Assembly (NCBI GenBank): GCA_038231435.1 | Contig: JBBRLJ010000055.1 | Span: 1 to 27,969 of the forward strand | Length of the DNA: 27,969 nucleotides | Direction of reading: 5' to 3' | DNA from: Planctomycetota bacterium | Lineage (GTDB): Bacteria > Planctomycetota > UBA11346 | Shown: positions 1-27,969 of the stretch, in pieces | Layout of the letters: the number at the start of each line of letters is the position of its first letter | Position numbering within the stretch: the first letter of the stretch is position 1 | Made by a program: the position numbers and the translations under genes | Notes under the pieces: generated by a model | Seen by the model: the letters and a program-made list of their open reading frames with translations, nothing else | Database searches by the model: none | Told to the model about the DNA's origin: nothing

Positions 1-250
1 GATCTCGCCGGAAGCCGGCGAGATCGTCGGCGGATGGGCTACGCCCATTGTATCCGCCGACCGCCCCTCGGCGCCCGGCGGTTTTCGTTCAGGGGCTTCG
101 CCCCTACGGCCCTGCGGGCCTACCCCACGGGCTTTGTCGGGGCTCGATCTCGCCGGAAGCCGGCGAGATCGTCGGCGGATGGGCTACGCCCATTGTATCC
201 GCCGACCGCCCCTCGGCGCCCGCCCCATCGCTCCGCGATGGGGCCCCCGG
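1..250 (+). repeat. Tandem dimer of multi-hairpin REP/BIME-like repeat (unit A truncated at window start 1-77, linker 78-90, unit B 91-222, terminal hairpin 222-244)
   Basis: 1-77 is identical to 146-222 (145-bp period). Hairpins: AGGGGC-ttc-GCCCCT, GGCCC-tgc-GGGCC, GATCTCGCCGG-aag-CCGGCGAGATC, GTCGGCGGA-TGGGC-tac-GCCCA-ttgta-TCCGCCGAC, GCCCCATCGC-tcc-GCGATGGGGC. The same family occurs at 27611-27912. Confidence 0.92.
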
Positions 251-288: not shown

Positions 289-312
289 TGACGCGAGCGA
301 AGCAAGCATGAC

Positions 313-432
313 GGCCGCCGAGGCCTGGTTTGCGTGAACAATGGGCGTAGCCCATCACGCAAACTTTCTGGCCGCCCGGCGGACAGAAAGAGGGACGACA
401 AAGGCCGTGGGGGCCCGGGGGCGGAGCCCCCG
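313..432 (-). repeat. Diverged inverted copy of the multi-hairpin repeat
   Basis: The reverse complement reads CGGGGGC-tcc-GCCCCCG..CCCCACGGCCTTTGTCG..CTTTCTG(stem)CAGAAAG-TTTGCGTGA-TGGGCTACGCCCATTGT-TCACGCAAA..CCTCGGCG, with the same motif order as the + strand units. Confidence 0.85.
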
Positions 433-437
433 CACCA

Positions 438-2567
438 TTAGGCTCTTGCGCACACCACCACCCGGCCGGTGAATGCGCCCATGCGCAGGATCAGCAGCTC
501 GCCGTCGATCACGGCGTCGTCGGGCGCGGCGTTCAACCCATCGATGATGCGCCAATCGCCTGCGGGCAGGCGCACCACGACGCTCTCAGCGGGCGCGTCG
601 GCGAAGGCGTGGGCGACCACCAGCAGGCTCCGTCCGTCCTCGGCCAGGCGCACCACCGCCTGCCAACCGGTCGGGTGGCGGTAGCTGGCGCCGCCGATGC
701 GCTCGATGCGCGAGCTTCCGCGATCGATGATCGGCGCCACGCGCTGGTAGAGCGCCTGCGCCTGCGCGACCACCGCCCACTGCTCGGCGGAGAGCGTGGT
801 GATGTCGCCCGAGATCGCCATGCGCCCGAGAAAGGTCGCCGCCAGGCTGTAGTGCATTCGGCGCGCAGTGTCCGCCGCCTTCAGCACCGCCCAAATCTGC
901 GATTGGCGCGGCAGGATCAGGCGGTGGAGATTCGCCGCCACGATCGGGATCTCGACCAGCTCGTGCGCATCCGAGAACGATGCCTGAGCGGACAGAGCCA
1001 TGAACGACGGCTCCAGGCGGTGTCCGCCCGAGGCGCAGTTCTCGATCACCAGCTCGGGAAGCTCGGCGCGCAGGCGAGCGAAGAACCGCTGCGTACCTTC
1101 GAGGCTCAGGCGCAGGCCCTCGCCAAGCGACTCGGGATGGTCGGCACCGATGCCGATGCATTCGTTGTAGTCGACCTTGATGTAGCCGACGCCGCAGGAA
1201 CGCAGCAGGCCGATGACGCGCTCGGCGAGGTAGTCGTGCACCCAGGGATCCGCCATGTTCCAGAAGCGCCGGCCAGAGGGCTCGATCGGCACGCCGTCAC
1301 GCGTCAGCTGGTGCGCTGTCTGATGCCATGCGTCGCTGGTCGGGCCCATGGTCTCGAATTCGAACCACAGACCGGGGATCAACCCGCGCGCGCGGATCTC
1401 GGCACAGGTATGGGCCAGACCCTTCGGGAACAGCTTCGGGCTGGGCAGCCAGTCACCTGAGCTCTCGCCCCAGTTGCGGCCTTCCTGCTGATACCAGCCG
1501 GCGTCGATGACCAGGAACTTGGTCGCGGTTCCGCGCAGGCGGTCGCTGATCGCCATGAGCAGGTCGTGGCTGGGATTGCCCCAGGTGGTGCAGTATTCAT
1601 TGCAGACGATCGGCAGCGCAGCCTCGACGGCTGGGAGCCGCTCGAGTCCCCGCCGCTGCACGAGGGTCAGACGCGCGCACAGATCATCGATGTCCCCGTG
1701 CGCGCAGGCGAGGATCGCCTCGGGACCGGCGAAGGATTCGCCGGGCGCGAGCCGCTTCATCCAGTGGCCGGATTCGCGGTCGGCGAGGCCTCCCGAGATG
1801 TTCACGAAGTCGTCCTTGCGGTAGAGCTCGAGCTGCCACGAGCCCGGCACCGCCAACATGGCGCCCCACATCACCCCGGCCACGGTGTCCTCGACGCCGA
1901 CGAACGGGAACCAGCCGCGCACCGGCATCGAGCCGGCCTGGCCGAAGCGTTCATTGAGCATGCAGTGCCCGGTCCACGAGCGCTCGAGGTGCAGCGCCTC
2001 GAAGGGCACCGCCTCGTGGCGGCCTTCCGATGACCACGCTGAACGGAAACGGTGCGCGTGCAGCCGTTCCGGAGCGTCGTCGGCGGCGACTGGCGAGATG
2101 TGTCCGAGCGAGAAGCTGGTGAGCATCTCCAGGGTGACTGGCTGGTCGCCGCCATTGGTCAGCTCGGTGCGCACCGTGAAGGCGTTCTCGGGATCGCGAT
2201 GTTCGAGACGGTGGGAGACCCGCATGCCCCGCGCGCCGGCGAGCACGGTGGTGATCACGGTAGAGCCACCATTGCGCACCGCCGTCTGCGCCACATGGCG
2301 CAGCGCGTGCATCGCCGGCGAGCCGCGCAGCGATCGGCCTTGCGAAAATCCGCCGGAATACGCGTCGCCGACAAGCTTGTAGTGGGCGAGGCCGTCAACG
2401 TTCCAGGCCTTGGGCCACGCCGCCGGAGGCAAGCCGCTCTCGCGATGGTCGGGTATGCGTCCGCGCAGCGCGGCAGGGATCAGACACAGACCAACGCGGC
2501 CTTCTTCCTCGAGGTAGCGCACCGCGGTATCGCCCAATACGTACTCGGAGAGGATGGCGCCGGGCAT
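438..2567 (-). CDS. Alpha-galactosidase, glycoside hydrolase family 36 (melibiase-like), ~709 aa
   Basis: GH36 motifs LVIDAGWY, GLWFEFE, YIKVDYN (nucleophile Asp), IENCASGGHR, SFSDAHE. Start moved to ATG 2567 (MPGAILSEY) after an AAAGG SD; the upstream ORF extension overlaps the GIY-YIG gene. Confidence 0.9.
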   Translation of the reverse strand: MPGAILSEYVLGDTAVRYLEEEGRVGLCLIPAALRGRIPDHRESGLPPAAWPKAWNVDGLAHYKLVGDAYSGGFSQGRSLRGSPAMHALRHVAQTAVRNGGSTVITTVLAGARGMRVSHRLEHRDPENAFTVRTELTNGGDQPVTLEMLTSFSLGHISPVAADDAPERLHAHRFRSAWSSEGRHEAVPFEALHLERSWTGHCMLNERFGQAGSMPVRGWFPFVGVEDTVAGVMWGAMLAVPGSWQLELYRKDDFVNISGGLADRESGHWMKRLAPGESFAGPEAILACAHGDIDDLCARLTLVQRRGLERLPAVEAALPIVCNEYCTTWGNPSHDLLMAISDRLRGTATKFLVIDAGWYQQEGRNWGESSGDWLPSPKLFPKGLAHTCAEIRARGLIPGLWFEFETMGPTSDAWHQTAHQLTRDGVPIEPSGRRFWNMADPWVHDYLAERVIGLLRSCGVGYIKVDYNECIGIGADHPESLGEGLRLSLEGTQRFFARLRAELPELVIENCASGGHRLEPSFMALSAQASFSDAHELVEIPIVAANLHRLILPRQSQIWAVLKAADTARRMHYSLAATFLGRMAISGDITTLSAEQWAVVAQAQALYQRVAPIIDRGSSRIERIGGASYRHPTGWQAVVRLAEDGRSLLVVAHAFADAPAESVVVRLPAGDWRIIDGLNAAPDDAVIDGELLILRMGAFTGRVVVCARA

Positions 2568-3236: not shown

Positions 3237-4100
3237 TTACGCCGTCTTCGCGGCGGCTGTGAGCACGGCCTGGGCGCGGGCCTCGCGCGCGGTCTGCTTG
3301 CGGTCCTGCCACGGCACGTGCCGGCGCGTGGCGCGCGGGATGCCGGGTCGGTGATAGCCGATGGTGTAGGCGTAGCGGCTCTGGTCGGTGGTGTTCGGCC
3401 CGGCGTAGTGGAGCGTCCGGCAGTGGAAAATCACCGCGCCGCCCGCGGCGAGCGGCACCGGCACCGCGGCGCGGGTATCGGCGACCAGGGTTTCGAGCCC
3501 GTGCACGCGCACGTCGTTGCCGATCGACTGGTGCTCGAGGATCTCGCCGCGGTGGCTGCCGGGAACGAACCACAGGCAGCCATTCTCGACCGTCGCGCGC
3601 TGGAGCGGCATCCAGATGCTCAGGCCGCGCGCGTCGCTCATCGGATCCCAGTAGGCCTCGTCCTGGTGCCAAGGCGTGGTCTTGCCATAGCGGGCGGGTT
3701 TCAGGATCGCATGGTCGCCGCCCCAGCGGACCTCCGATATCGGGCCATCGCCGAGCACCTGCCGCGACAGCGCCAGGCCGTTGGCGTGGTAGAGCGTCTC
3801 GCGCAGCTCGGGAGCCTTCGCCGACGGGGCGAGGATCTGCGGCAGACCCTCAGGCTTGCCGTCCTCATCGGCGCCGGCGAGGTCGAACTGCTCGCCGCGC
3901 TCGCGGCCGGCTCGTGCGGCGAACAGGCGCTCGAAGATCGCGTGCAGGCGCTCCACTTCGTCATCGCCGGTGATGCGCTCGATGCGCAGGAAGCCGTCGC
4001 GGTGGAATGCGGCGACCTGCTCGGCGGAGAACTCCACGTCCGCCTGGACGACTTCGCCAGTGGAGACAGCATTGGAGTCGGCGGTGGCGGTGGCGGTCAT
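3237..4100 (-). CDS. Phytanoyl-CoA dioxygenase (PhyH) family Fe(II)/2-oxoglutarate dioxygenase
   Basis: AFHRDGFL, TPWHQDEAYW (HxD), NGCLWFVPGSH, IFHCRTLHYAGPN, SRYAY; GGAG SD before the ATG. Confidence 0.92.
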   Translation of the reverse strand: MTATATADSNAVSTGEVVQADVEFSAEQVAAFHRDGFLRIERITGDDEVERLHAIFERLFAARAGRERGEQFDLAGADEDGKPEGLPQILAPSAKAPELRETLYHANGLALSRQVLGDGPISEVRWGGDHAILKPARYGKTTPWHQDEAYWDPMSDARGLSIWMPLQRATVENGCLWFVPGSHRGEILEHQSIGNDVRVHGLETLVADTRAAVPVPLAAGGAVIFHCRTLHYAGPNTTDQSRYAYTIGYHRPGIPRATRRHVPWQDRKQTAREARAQAVLTAAAKTA

Positions 4101-4218: not shown

Positions 4219-5037
4219 CTATGGAGCGACGCGGGTGGAACTCGCCGCGTTCTGCGCCTCCAACCAGGGCATGTCGCGCGGCGTGGTGCGCGGCACGCCC
4301 GGGCGCCAGAATCCTACGATGTAGGCGTAGCGCTGGACCCCCGTGCGGTTGGGACCCGCGTAGTGCAGCGTGCGCACGTGATGGATCACCGCGCCACCCG
4401 CCGGCAGCGGCACCGGCACCGCCGCGCGCGTGTCGGCGACCAGCGTCTCGAGACCGTGCACACGCGGATCGCCACCGATCGGCTGGTGCATGAGCACGCC
4501 CAGGCGATGGCTGCCCGGCACGAACCACATGCAGCCGTTGTCGACGGTGGCCTCCTGGAGCGCGAGCCAGGTGCTGCAGCTGCGCGCATCCTGCATCGGC
4601 ACCGGCCAGTACGCCTCGTCCTGGTGCCACGGGGTGGCGGCGCCGTGGCGGGCGGGCTTGAGGATGGCGTGATCGCCACCACGGCCGAGTTCGTCGGCCG
4701 GGCCACCGAGCAGCTGAAGCGACGCCGCGCGAGCGTGCTCGTGGAAGCGGCCATGCGCCAGCTCTGGCGCGAGCTTGGAGGGCTCGAGGATCTGCGGCAG
4801 GCCCTCGGCCTTGCCGTCCACGTCAACCGCCGAGAGATCGAAATGGGCACCACGCTCACGGCCGGCGCGCTCGGCGAACAGGCGCTCGAGCACCAGGCGC
4901 AACCGCGCGACCTCATCGGCGTCGACCAGGCGCGGGATGGCGAGAAAGCCGTCGCGCTCGAAGGCGGTGATCTGTTCGTCAGTCAGGATCGGCGTGGTGG
5001 ATGGCAGAGCTGGTTCGCGGGCTGCGGCAACGGTCAT
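4219..5037 (-). CDS. PhyH family Fe(II)/2-oxoglutarate dioxygenase (tandem paralogue of 3237-4100)
   Basis: AFERDGFL, TPWHQDEAYW, NGCMWFVPGSH, HHVRTLHYAGPN. Start at ATG 5037 (MTVAAARE) after GGAG; the rest of ORF 4219-6033 is antisense to the AraC gene. Confidence 0.92.
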   Translation of the reverse strand: MTVAAAREPALPSTTPILTDEQITAFERDGFLAIPRLVDADEVARLRLVLERLFAERAGRERGAHFDLSAVDVDGKAEGLPQILEPSKLAPELAHGRFHEHARAASLQLLGGPADELGRGGDHAILKPARHGAATPWHQDEAYWPVPMQDARSCSTWLALQEATVDNGCMWFVPGSHRLGVLMHQPIGGDPRVHGLETLVADTRAAVPVPLPAGGAVIHHVRTLHYAGPNRTGVQRYAYIVGFWRPGVPRTTPRDMPWLEAQNAASSTRVAP

Positions 5038-26688: not shown

Positions 26689-27612
26689 ATGCGCATCATG
26701 TCTCCGATCGCCGTGGGCTTCCTCTATGCCGCTGGTGTGCTCCGTGCCGCCAGCGCCAACGCAGCGGACGCGCCGGCCCCAGCGCCAGCACCCTCGAAGC
26801 CACATGCCGCCTCCCAGTGGAGCCATTCCGGTCGCGCCGGGGCCTTCGTCACCAACGTCTACACCGAAGGCGCAGGAAGCTCGCGCGATCCGGCGATCGG
26901 CGGCGCGCGCGAATCGACCGCGTTCTTGCTCACCCTGGACGCGGCACTGCTCTGGCGGGGTGGCCCCGAATCCAGTGAGCAGAACCTACGCTTGCGCTAC
27001 GGGCGCGTACGCGTCGAAGGCGTCGACTGGATCGAAAACCAGGACGAGGCCCACTACGACGGCGTGGTCCGATACTCGTTCGCGAAACCCCACTTCGTCT
27101 ATGGAGCATGGGGCACGGACTCGGTGTTCACCAGTCCGGTCGATCACCAGGCGTTCGATCCGGTCACTGCGCGTGTCAGCGCCGGCTATGGGCAATTGTA
27201 CGAGGGCCTGCTCCTCCAGGCTGATCACGAAGCCAAGGACCATGCCGGCGAGGATCGCCTCGAGGTCCGCCTCGGCGTGCGCGCCCAGAAGCGCTGGAGC
27301 CGACACGACACCGCCTTCCAGGATCGCATCGAAGTGGGCCCCGAGGGCTACGCGCGCTACGACCGTCCCATCGACCCGTCCATCCGCTTTTTCGCGCAGT
27401 ACGAGGTCTTCAGCGAGTTCGACGACATCAAGCACGTGACCCAGCTCGTCACCGCTGGCCTGACCGCGGCGCTCGGCACCTACGTCACGCTCGAGCTTGC
27501 GTTCCGCGCCTACTTCGAATCCCATCCACACGAGGCTCCCGCAGGCTCCACGGGCTACGACTCCTGGAGCGTGCGCCAGGATACGCTCATCGGTCTGACG
27601 TATTCCTTCTAG
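26689..27612 (+). CDS. Putative outer-membrane beta-barrel protein (DUF481/DUF3078-like)
   Basis: Signal peptide ending ASA-NA, amphipathic strands (EQNLRLRYG, SAGYG, LEVRLG), C-terminal IGLTYSF barrel signature. Confidence 0.72.
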   Translation: MRIMSPIAVGFLYAAGVLRAASANAADAPAPAPAPSKPHAASQWSHSGRAGAFVTNVYTEGAGSSRDPAIGGARESTAFLLTLDAALLWRGGPESSEQNLRLRYGRVRVEGVDWIENQDEAHYDGVVRYSFAKPHFVYGAWGTDSVFTSPVDHQAFDPVTARVSAGYGQLYEGLLLQADHEAKDHAGEDRLEVRLGVRAQKRWSRHDTAFQDRIEVGPEGYARYDRPIDPSIRFFAQYEVFSEFDDIKHVTQLVTAGLTAALGTYVTLELAFRAYFESHPHEAPAGSTGYDSWSVRQDTLIGLTYSF

Positions 27613-27912
27613 GGGCTCCGCCCCTACGGCCTATCGGCCTACCCCACGGGCTTTGTCGGGGCTCGAATTCGCCGGGGGCCGGCCAATTCGTGGGCGGATC
27701 GGCTACGCCGATTGTATCCGCCCACCGCCCCTCGGCGCCCGGCTGATGTTCAGGGGCTCCGCCCCTACGGCCCTGGCGGGCCTACCCCACGGGCTTTGTC
27801 GGGGCTCGAATTCGCCGGGGGCCGGCGAATTCGTCGGCGGATCGGCTACGCCGATTGTATCCGCCGACCACCCCTCGGCGCCCGCCCCATCGCGGAGCGA
27901 CGGGGCCCCCGG
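27611..27912 (+). repeat. Tandem dimer of multi-hairpin REP/BIME-like repeat (unit A 27611-27741, linker, unit B 27752-27884, terminal hairpin 27884-27906)
   Basis: Same motif series as 1-250, with compensatory stem changes (GAATTC..GAATTC, ATCGGC-tac-GCCGAT, GTGGGCGGA..TCCGCCCAC); begins inside the TAG stop of the barrel gene. Confidence 0.93.
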
Positions 27913-27969
27913 TTGGATATGGCATCATGTGAAATCTGGGAACTCGGACTCCGGCTCGGGGCGAGCCGA

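Follow-up and report, generated by a model that had tools for sequence, protein, structure and literature searches.

The closest described systems are the REP, BIME and REPIN repeats with their TnpA(REP)/RAYT enzymes (PMC3333891, PMC8266576, PMC3733652, PMC6006769). Such repeats occur in hundreds of intergenic copies near stop codons, lying close behind them (PMC12306157), form tandem arrays and inverted heterodimers, have C|T or C|A junctions without target-site duplication and are targets of insertion sequences; the repeat analysed here resembles them in these respects. The TnpA(REP) enzyme cleaves C|T or C|A sites and links the T to a 3'-OH; rolling-circle amplification of BIMEs has been modelled (PMC8266576, PMC3333891). 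The CGTC-tagged and untagged REP-like families (PMC3733652) are likewise high-copy palindromes downstream of genes without an associated transposase gene, but the present repeat lacks CGTC and has a multi-helix fold with a defined linker and junction. A REP is a single hairpin of 20–40 nt with tag and cut site on one strand, whereas the present repeat measures about 135 nt with a branched, T-shaped core, carries the GTAG tag only optionally and has its conserved CT on the strand opposite the tag.

In IS91/ISCR and Helitron elements one end is fixed, a hairpin lying some 10 nt inward of it, and the other is ragged; tandems occur, and target-site duplications do not. Parvovirus termini are T-shaped, comparable to GNA-capped branched single-stranded DNA (ssDNA) folds. 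With IS91/ISCR and Helitrons the present repeat shares the fixed head with a hairpin about 10 nt inside, the ragged tail, the tandems and the lack of target-site duplication; unlike them, it has a junction motif of about 3 nt, no Y2 gene in its own genome and no copy near any of 14 Y2 loci in relatives. It departs from the IS200/IS605 pattern in having one fixed end only and no leading/lagging-strand or lagging-strand-template bias (56:59 over 26 contigs, strand inferred from GC skew). GNA-capped ssDNA signals (Streptomyces telomeres, phages G4 and N4, ssiA hairpins; PMC5449611, PMC13037366) are similar in having several GC-closed GNA triloops on one strand, one hairpin that is often inverted and a branched fold, but are single-copy origins, promoters or telomeres, whereas here the structure recurs at many dispersed chromosomal sites. 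Integron attC sites and the DUF1874 motif (PMC5737381) are also structured, probably as ssDNA, and located just behind genes; unlike attC, the repeat has no R''/R' core boxes, does not occur once per cassette in arrays and sits behind housekeeping genes. Readings as an HDV-like ribozyme, an attC site or a DGR hairpin were dropped, the required conserved boxes being missing from the sequence.

The window, that is, the whole stretch of DNA analysed, is the complete contig JBBRLJ010000055.1 (27,969 nt; assembly GCA_038231435.1) of a Planctomycetota bacterium; in the locus labels its genome is G000 and the contig C55. The sequence-only reading had proposed a large, structure-constrained, multicopy non-autonomous element, more complex than a REP, with five copies in the window. 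Every one was found, at 1–77, 90–222, 312–432 (minus strand), 27610–27741 and 27751–27884, scoring 81–153 bits with a covariance model built partly from these very copies. The repeat occupies both contig breaks, and the statement that the window holds no RAYT gene was borne out. The window copies folded more strongly than dinucleotide shuffles (RNA z −3.4 to −6.2; DNA z −4.7 to −6.8).

In the reading direction of the upstream gene, the order is host R-C, a T and a T-rich linker of 8–11 nt, followed by a hairpin (H1), an optional second hairpin (H2) and a spacer. The core then comprises stem P1, an invariant internal loop, stem P2 and a three-way junction whose arms P3 and P4 are stacked, and the copy ends in a tail of one of two hairpin types. 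The overall fold is thus a hairpin head plus a T-shaped three-way junction of about 135 bases, modelled as a branched structure of 133 positions and 46 pairs; it was set by hand and counted because RNAalifold under-paired on raw alignments. Two subtypes were distinguished among 248 parsed heads: subtype A (153/248) has H1, H2 and GTAG, and subtype B (95/248) has H1 only, lacks GTAG and uses mostly different stem sequences. A further 25 of 273 parsed matches had no recognisable H1. The features of the window are listed below.

1–77, plus strand: 3' part of a subtype-A copy (P3, P4 and the right arms of P2/P1); covariance-model match truncated at its 5' side by the contig start
78–90, plus strand: T-rich linker between the previous copy and the head that follows, assigned from its sequence and linker class
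91–105, plus strand: H1, the head hairpin, with a 6-bp stem and a TTC loop that reads GAA from the minus strand
108–120, plus strand: optional hairpin H2, present in subtype-A heads only
128–222, plus strand: T-shaped core of P1, internal loop, P2 and the three-way junction with P3 and P4; covariation in P1–P4
222–250, plus strand: tail hairpin T1, loop TCC
251–311, no strand: variable spacer of a tail-to-tail doublet, lying between its A tail and its B tail
312–432, minus strand: subtype-B copy, partner in the A/B doublet, 91.8 bits with the covariance model
433–442, minus strand: head linker of the B copy, containing the TAA stop (438–440) of the upstream melibiase-domain gene
27610–27741, plus strand: subtype-A copy, its head overlapping the TAG stop (27610–27612) of the upstream gene
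27742–27751, plus strand: junction (GC|T) and T-rich linker belonging to the second tandem copy
27752–27912, plus strand: subtype-A copy with T1 tail
27913–27969, plus strand: downstream flank common to two other element loci

The partial copy at 1–77 is the upstream unit of a tandem pair and is identical to 146–222, a local tandem duplication, so the two count as non-independent evidence. On the minus strand, H1 and H2 of subtype A have GTAG at their feet; P4 in the core at 128–222 has a 5-nt bulge and a TNC/GNA loop. The loop of T1 at 222–250 is oriented opposite to the genome norm, where GGA was found in 33 of 71 T1 tails and TCC in one. The copy at 312–432 was indeed inverted, as proposed, but it is of subtype B, with H1 only, no GTAG, distinct stem sequences and a 4-nt bulge. 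The gene upstream of the copy at 27610 gave a weak DUF481 match. The flank at 27913–27969, following the last copy, is common to three loci in all (C29, 57 nt at 100% identity; C1, 40 nt at 87.5%) and could be a carried flank or an assembly tip. Elsewhere in the window, 3237–4100 and 4219–5037 are tandem paralogous PhyH-family dioxygenase genes with a period of about 955 bp, in a sugar-utilisation region.

The stems were further analysed in 40 copies from several genomes, in which 94.8% of cells pair. Both sides had changed in 27 of the 46 pairs, with 170 two-sided cells against 12 one-sided; none of 500 shuffles matched this and pairing with slid partners dropped to 37–48%, although neither control fully removes the relatedness of the copies. 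Covariation therefore extends far beyond the window copies from which it had been proposed. The particular left-versus-right changes described there were only partly upheld: the covariation is real, but the GTGG/CCAC swap is confined to the first right-hand copy (27611 in that reading), the copy at 27752 having the left-hand version, and in the long hairpin the right arm of the 27611 copy has a mismatch. Helix lengths are constant across genera, the bulges, internal loop and loop identities are kept, and relatives have other tetramers in place of GTAG. The proposal of a large, structure-constrained element was supported.

A nhmmer model from 187 seeds gave 337 matches in 197 clusters, covering 0.8% of the genome, and no match in the reversed genome. 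BLASTN of 91–250, the copy count suggested in the sequence-only reading, returned 276 matches, 145 of them covering at least 80%. Copies were present at 84 of the genome's 216 contig ends. With a covariance model from 40 copies, the repeat was detected in 35 of the 47 further genomes examined from its Planctomycetota family, at 1 to at least 70 copies per genome (at most 70 candidates taken from each), and in none of 144 genomes of other Planctomycetota families (0/144; 22 candidates scored per genome). Within one genus the copy number ranged from 0 to hundreds. Of 23 carrier loci outside the window's genome, 19 were from uncultured Planctomycetota, two were labelled "bacterium" and two Burkholderiales; the latter two are probably mis-binned, since their alignable flanks are 100% identical to contigs of the window's genome. 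Contigs of other bins with aligned flanks 100% identical to that genome (L075, L079, L081, L139) are probably binning contamination. A search for 16S found no assembled gene.

No described Rfam family was matched: nothing reached the gathering threshold over the whole window, and a scan of 27580–27969 by E-value gave a best score of 16.7 bits, far below the cut-offs. Blastn against plasmids gave only three 41-bit chance matches and viral contigs only two motif-only chance matches. A pattern scan of metagenomes found four loci, none near enough for a clean empty site. The literature covered, including the main text of bioRxiv 10.64898/2026.10.21.760802, contained no description of the family; ISfinder and subscription journals lay outside that scope.

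Gene positions were taken from a home-made gene caller (4044 genes in the window's genome). None of the 197 clusters lay inside a called gene, and copies adjoining a gene end were in the same sense in 167 cases and opposite in 54. Of 241 heads, 67 follow another copy, leaving 174 free heads. Of these, 127 lay between −30 and +20 nt relative to a stop in the same sense and 3 adjoined tRNA ends; another 23 came behind an opposite gene's start, and the last 21 had other positions. For the interval 0–20 nt from a stop, the null expectation is 5.4%. In two relatives (G016 and G013; L112:1497–1641 and L141:1491–1635) the single detected copy starts at a tRNA CCA end, the tRNA identities being Ala by eye and Lys by ARAGORN.

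The head junction was defined by the trinucleotide RCT, found 9–14 nt before H1 in 164 of 241 heads; control windows gave 47 and 39. This enriched RCT is on the strand opposite GTAG; on the tagged strand, the 3' foot of H1 has a CT in subtype A only. Subtype-B linkers contain 4% C compared with 34% upstream. For the 65 genes with their stop inside the linker, T was at the third position of the last codon at a frequency of 0.62, versus 0.09 genome-wide. Linkers were nearly locus-unique (162 distinct of 188) and hardly inherited with the body, their identity between near-identical bodies being 0.43–0.56 against a baseline of 0.34; within tandems, the linker is repeated exactly.

All seven orthologous sites aligned on both flanks (7/7) were empty in the window's genome, and four clusters of that genome were empty in relatives (six alignments). 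In four orthologue comparisons the foreign sequence begins at R-C|T, three of them inside the last codons, and in three (L163, L164, L123) the linker codons still match the C-terminus of the orthologue, so that part of the linker can be host sequence; the remaining comparisons were too diverged to read. No target-site duplication was found in 39 singletons, with shared-word lengths equal to the null, and single copies have no terminal inverted repeats. Host flanks share only about 3 nt, with no upstream sharing among 172 heads once element sequence was masked. At the tail the end is ragged. In 78 of 174 copies another H1-like hairpin follows no more than 75 nt downstream, against 104 of 5000 windows chosen at random, and about a dozen short fragments of heads run directly into a new linker and head. 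One intergenic region of a relative (G002, L171:8207–8726), orthologous to a cluster in the window's genome, has a different tandem hairpin repeat.

The subtypes also differ in how they combine. Tail-to-tail pairs were A/B in 28 cases, A/A in 5 and B/B in none (p=6e-6; 15 with an untyped partner left out), whereas tandems were A/A in 37 cases, B/B in 19 and A/B in none (28 with an untyped partner left out). Since their spacers vary, the doublets look like two insertions, one per gene end.

Whether the fold is selected in DNA or RNA was judged from the pairs and loops themselves; ssDNA and RNA motifs are hard to separate bioinformatically (PMC5737381). In 39 pairs of 117 distinct subtype-A copies (4510 cells), 227 double transversions were counted versus 28 double transitions, and the mismatches included 25 G-T and 23 A-C. 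G-T pairs thus made up 0.55% of cells compared with 8.1% in host tRNA stems (98/1213). The H1 triloops of 248 heads were T-N-C in 181 and T-N-T in 51, corresponding to G-N-A and A-N-A on the minus strand, and the P4 loops were T-N-C in 160 of 169; the middle base of the triloops is free. GNA/TNC loops capped 76% of 594 element hairpins compared with 13% of 705 hairpins in genes, and about half of the P3 arms retain two T-C mismatches (G-A on the minus strand). Counting against a strand assignment, sporadic mismatches outside the P3 tip showed no purine-purine bias to either strand, and a complementary loop can match the stability of a GNA loop (PMC5449611). As DNA, GCGNAGC mini-hairpins greatly exceed related RNA hairpins in stability; they are found in ssDNA origins (PMC13037366), and Streptomyces telomere overhangs carry GNA mini-hairpins (PMC5449611). 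Judged from these pairs and loops, the repeat likely folds as single-stranded DNA rather than RNA, and the suggestion of a structured ncRNA was not supported, the G-T pairs being as rare as A-C mismatches and the loops being DNA-type GNA triloops.

The reading preferred here, given a probability of about 0.58, is that this family-wide intergenic repeat acts as folded ssDNA and is spread in a REP/BIME-like manner by a putative HUH-type enzyme that joins its head at R-C|T. The repeat would become single-stranded during transcription or replication and then fold. The putative enzyme would nick C|T (or C|A) about 9–14 nt upstream of H1 on the sense strand, and the enzyme-linked T end would be joined to a host 3'-OH, with one-ended, rolling-circle-like copying that stops variably. 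Such variable stops would produce the tandems, the extra partial heads and the carried flanks. Heads landing in, or re-joined towards, promoters or coding cores would be purged, so that survivors would pile up at stop codons and tRNA ends; some insertions would replace the last codons with a linker-encoded stop. A/B doublets would survive, since inverted pairs of a single subtype (A/A or B/B) would make long palindromes. Potentially, recombination between copies and fold-back repair would then shuffle and perfect the stems. The main tension in this model is that the stable loops and GTAG are on the strand opposite the CT. Also counting against it are the missing mobiliser among the loci searched, the linker codons that match an orthologue's C-terminus in three comparisons, the scant inheritance of linkers with the body, the even 56:59 strand distribution and the sporadic mismatches without strand bias.

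A mobilising partner gene was searched for in the family genomes. No REPtron-like locus was seen among the matches examined (51 of 134 Y1, 14 of 14 Y2, 30 of 65 RT and 30 of 48 IS110). The RAYT/Y1 gene flanked by the repeat, whose search the sequence-only reading had suggested, was therefore not among the 51 Y1 matches; at three of these loci a copy or remnant lay 0.3–1.3 kb away on a single side, in fragmented assemblies that break at the repeat. Because the family's assemblies are incomplete and are interrupted at repeats, they may lack a partner that is itself multicopy. The only Y1 of the window's genome (L001:685–1731) is a protein of 348 aa and has imperfect terminal inverted repeats of its own; the description of Y1 subclass 2.3, which is without REP-like flanks (PMC6006769), fits it; it sits beside a phage-type integrase and tRNA genes. 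The only HUH Rep there is a solo PF23343 protein that is absent from the 47 relatives (L231:4439–5545; G000:C43:18435–19544, minus strand), with a GNA hairpin in its 5' region. Its neighbours are a gene for a small putative regulator and AT-rich cassette-like ORFs between long attC-like sites.

By eye, no transposase-like gene was evident among the listed gene starts in 52 intervals between two repeat clusters. A weak match beside one RT gene was unconvincing, and the class 3 Planctomycetes REP-like hairpins (rows viewed in the PMC6006769 supplement) differ in sequence from the repeat. Elsewhere, an IS200-type Y1 in one relative (G043, L024:1278–1984) lies between inverted double-hairpin GNA units whose sequence is unrelated to the repeat, and the window's genome contains an integron integrase above the TIGR02249 cut-off (L275; G000:C17:106635–107582, minus strand).

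With regard to class, the high copy number, extragenic location near stops, BIME-like dimers and tandems of GTAG-REPs were all found. The GT[AG]G foot, the short single hairpin and a CT/CA cut site on the tagged strand were not: 95 of 248 heads are without GTAG, relatives swap the tetramer and the conserved CT is on the opposite strand. Assignment to the GTAG-REP/RAYT class was therefore not supported. As the repeat works like REP/BIME but lacks these three features, it was counted as a variant rather than a member. On this comparison, it is a new and unusually elaborate REP/BIME-like variant, for which no mobiliser was found, and it likely spreads like the REPs of E. coli.

A second repeat family in the same genome (e.g. 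C1:242230 and C1:242401) gave 127–147 matches, including longer variants with extra hairpins. In 118 of 147 copies its end has a GNA terminal hairpin and an A-rich linker that ends in AG and is fixed in length and templated. Its junction abuts a stop codon exactly in 38 of 118 cases compared with 0.7% expected. Using one pattern, this family was not found in 200 other genomes, a sample that left out two genomes of the same genus. Given that two unrelated-looking families have the same end architecture, one machinery may serve several repeat families. Low-copy tandem families rich in GC-GNA-GC hairpins were also seen (L236, G000:C17:96500–97600; L237, G000:C69:2300–3200), with further low-copy GC-GNA-GC tandem repeats at C18:38146, C62:10420 and C11:62664.

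The tension over strands is better explained by target-primed copying, a reading that is nevertheless judged unlikely. Here the GNA strand would be the free intermediate, as ssDNA or as RNA with an A-rich 3' end, and a polymerase would extend a host 3' end (of a gene or tRNA) along it via microhomology of 1–3 nt. The resulting insertion, similar to those of SINEs or retrozymes, would have its head fixed and its tail ragged. This accounts for stable loops on the minus strand with the junction on the plus strand, and the linker is indeed A-rich on the minus strand and near-unique per locus. The exact stop abutments of the second family and the single copies starting at tRNA CCA ends in two relatives also fit. 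However, no RT match was found in five element-rich genomes (G000, G002, G020, G062, G063; incomplete assemblies). The fixed-length, templated linker of the second family and the exact repetition of linkers within tandems also count against it, the avoidance of G-U speaks against an RNA intermediate, and the 3 of 174 copies at tRNA ends in the window's genome are about what gene-end counts predict.

Lying in the sense orientation directly behind stops, the majority of copies are probably transcribed, and the sense strand folds strongly as RNA. A structured 3'-UTR module, acting as an mRNA stabiliser, terminator aid or translation modulator, selected by the host and spread by recombination or gene conversion without an enzyme, would agree with this and with the effect on translation of REPs within 15 nt of a stop (PMC12306157). 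Within the window's genome, four-gamete combinations were complete in 34 of 36 site pairs and 117 copies formed 68 haplotypes at 7 pair sites, so that the swaps are recurrent or shuffled rather than one inherited event; such shuffling of modules between copies also fits this reading. As an origin this is distinctly unlikely, given a G-T share 15 times lower than that of host tRNAs and no higher than that of A-C, triloops in which the middle base is free, a copy number of 0 to hundreds in one genus, empty orthologous sites and insertions that truncate genes. A 3'-UTR role may be a secondary effect.

The near absence of intermediates between paired transversion swaps would fit one-step copying from arm to arm, and the covariation could then be mostly a by-product of fold-back template switching or repair, with ordinary recombination spreading the repeat, and the fold real in physical terms but selected by no enzyme. 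This was considered very unlikely, since the bulges, alternating P3 mismatches, internal loop and loop identities are kept, helix lengths hold across genera and the fixed R-C|T head needs a sequence-specific step.

Two insertion sequences were found at the repeat itself. In the window's genome, all ten ISL3 ends (10/10) were at one subtype-B site with an 8-bp duplication (PF01610, E 8e-9); these are the contig ends of C6, C7, C8, C11, C18, C20, C60, C64, C70 and C85 (e.g. L269:1–128), the transposase body being unassembled. An IS110 in G062 (L245:900–2776) and G059 (L242:900–2928) has its boundary at the head linker, and within its left end lies a 9-nt stretch that is reverse-complementary to the repeat head. 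By comparison with the bridge-RNA target guides of IS110 elements, whose recombination uses a CT core (PMC11208160), this match is likely such a guide. The duplication belonging to ISL3 and the guide-like match of IS110 indicate that both elements use the repeat as a target. REPs are targeted by IS3, IS110, IS4, IS256 and IS5, with ISL3 unmentioned in the main text of that source (PMC1525189). That the repeat is instead a MITE or other non-autonomous derivative of a classical IS (ISL3, IS110/IS1111 or another DDE element) mobilised in trans is highly improbable: ISL3 ends and an IS110 element adjoin it and IS110 recombination uses a CT core, but it is without terminal inverted repeats or target-site duplication, both elements treat it as a target, and host flanks share about 3 nt rather than an 11-nt programmed target.

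The analysis adds evidence for DNA over RNA, a rule for the junction, the pairing of A with B and the targeting by IS elements. A broader and more doubtful proposal is that there is a class of bacterial non-autonomous elements with T-shaped, GNA-capped ssDNA folds resembling those of telomeres and viral origins, copied by an enzyme outside the Y1/RAYT, Y2, RT and IS110 groups that would join the element precisely to gene and tRNA ends and rewrite protein C-termini. The combination of G-T avoidance and GNA loops can be reused to sort out "structured RNA" candidates that are really ssDNA elements. The repeat bears on how REP-like repeats spread, offering hundreds of naturally varied copies with a defined fold and junction in a RAYT-less family, and is a precise substrate for finding a new ssDNA-processing enzyme. 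Across this bacterial family it alters protein C-termini and 3' UTRs, breaks assemblies and hosts the landings of ISL3 and IS110.
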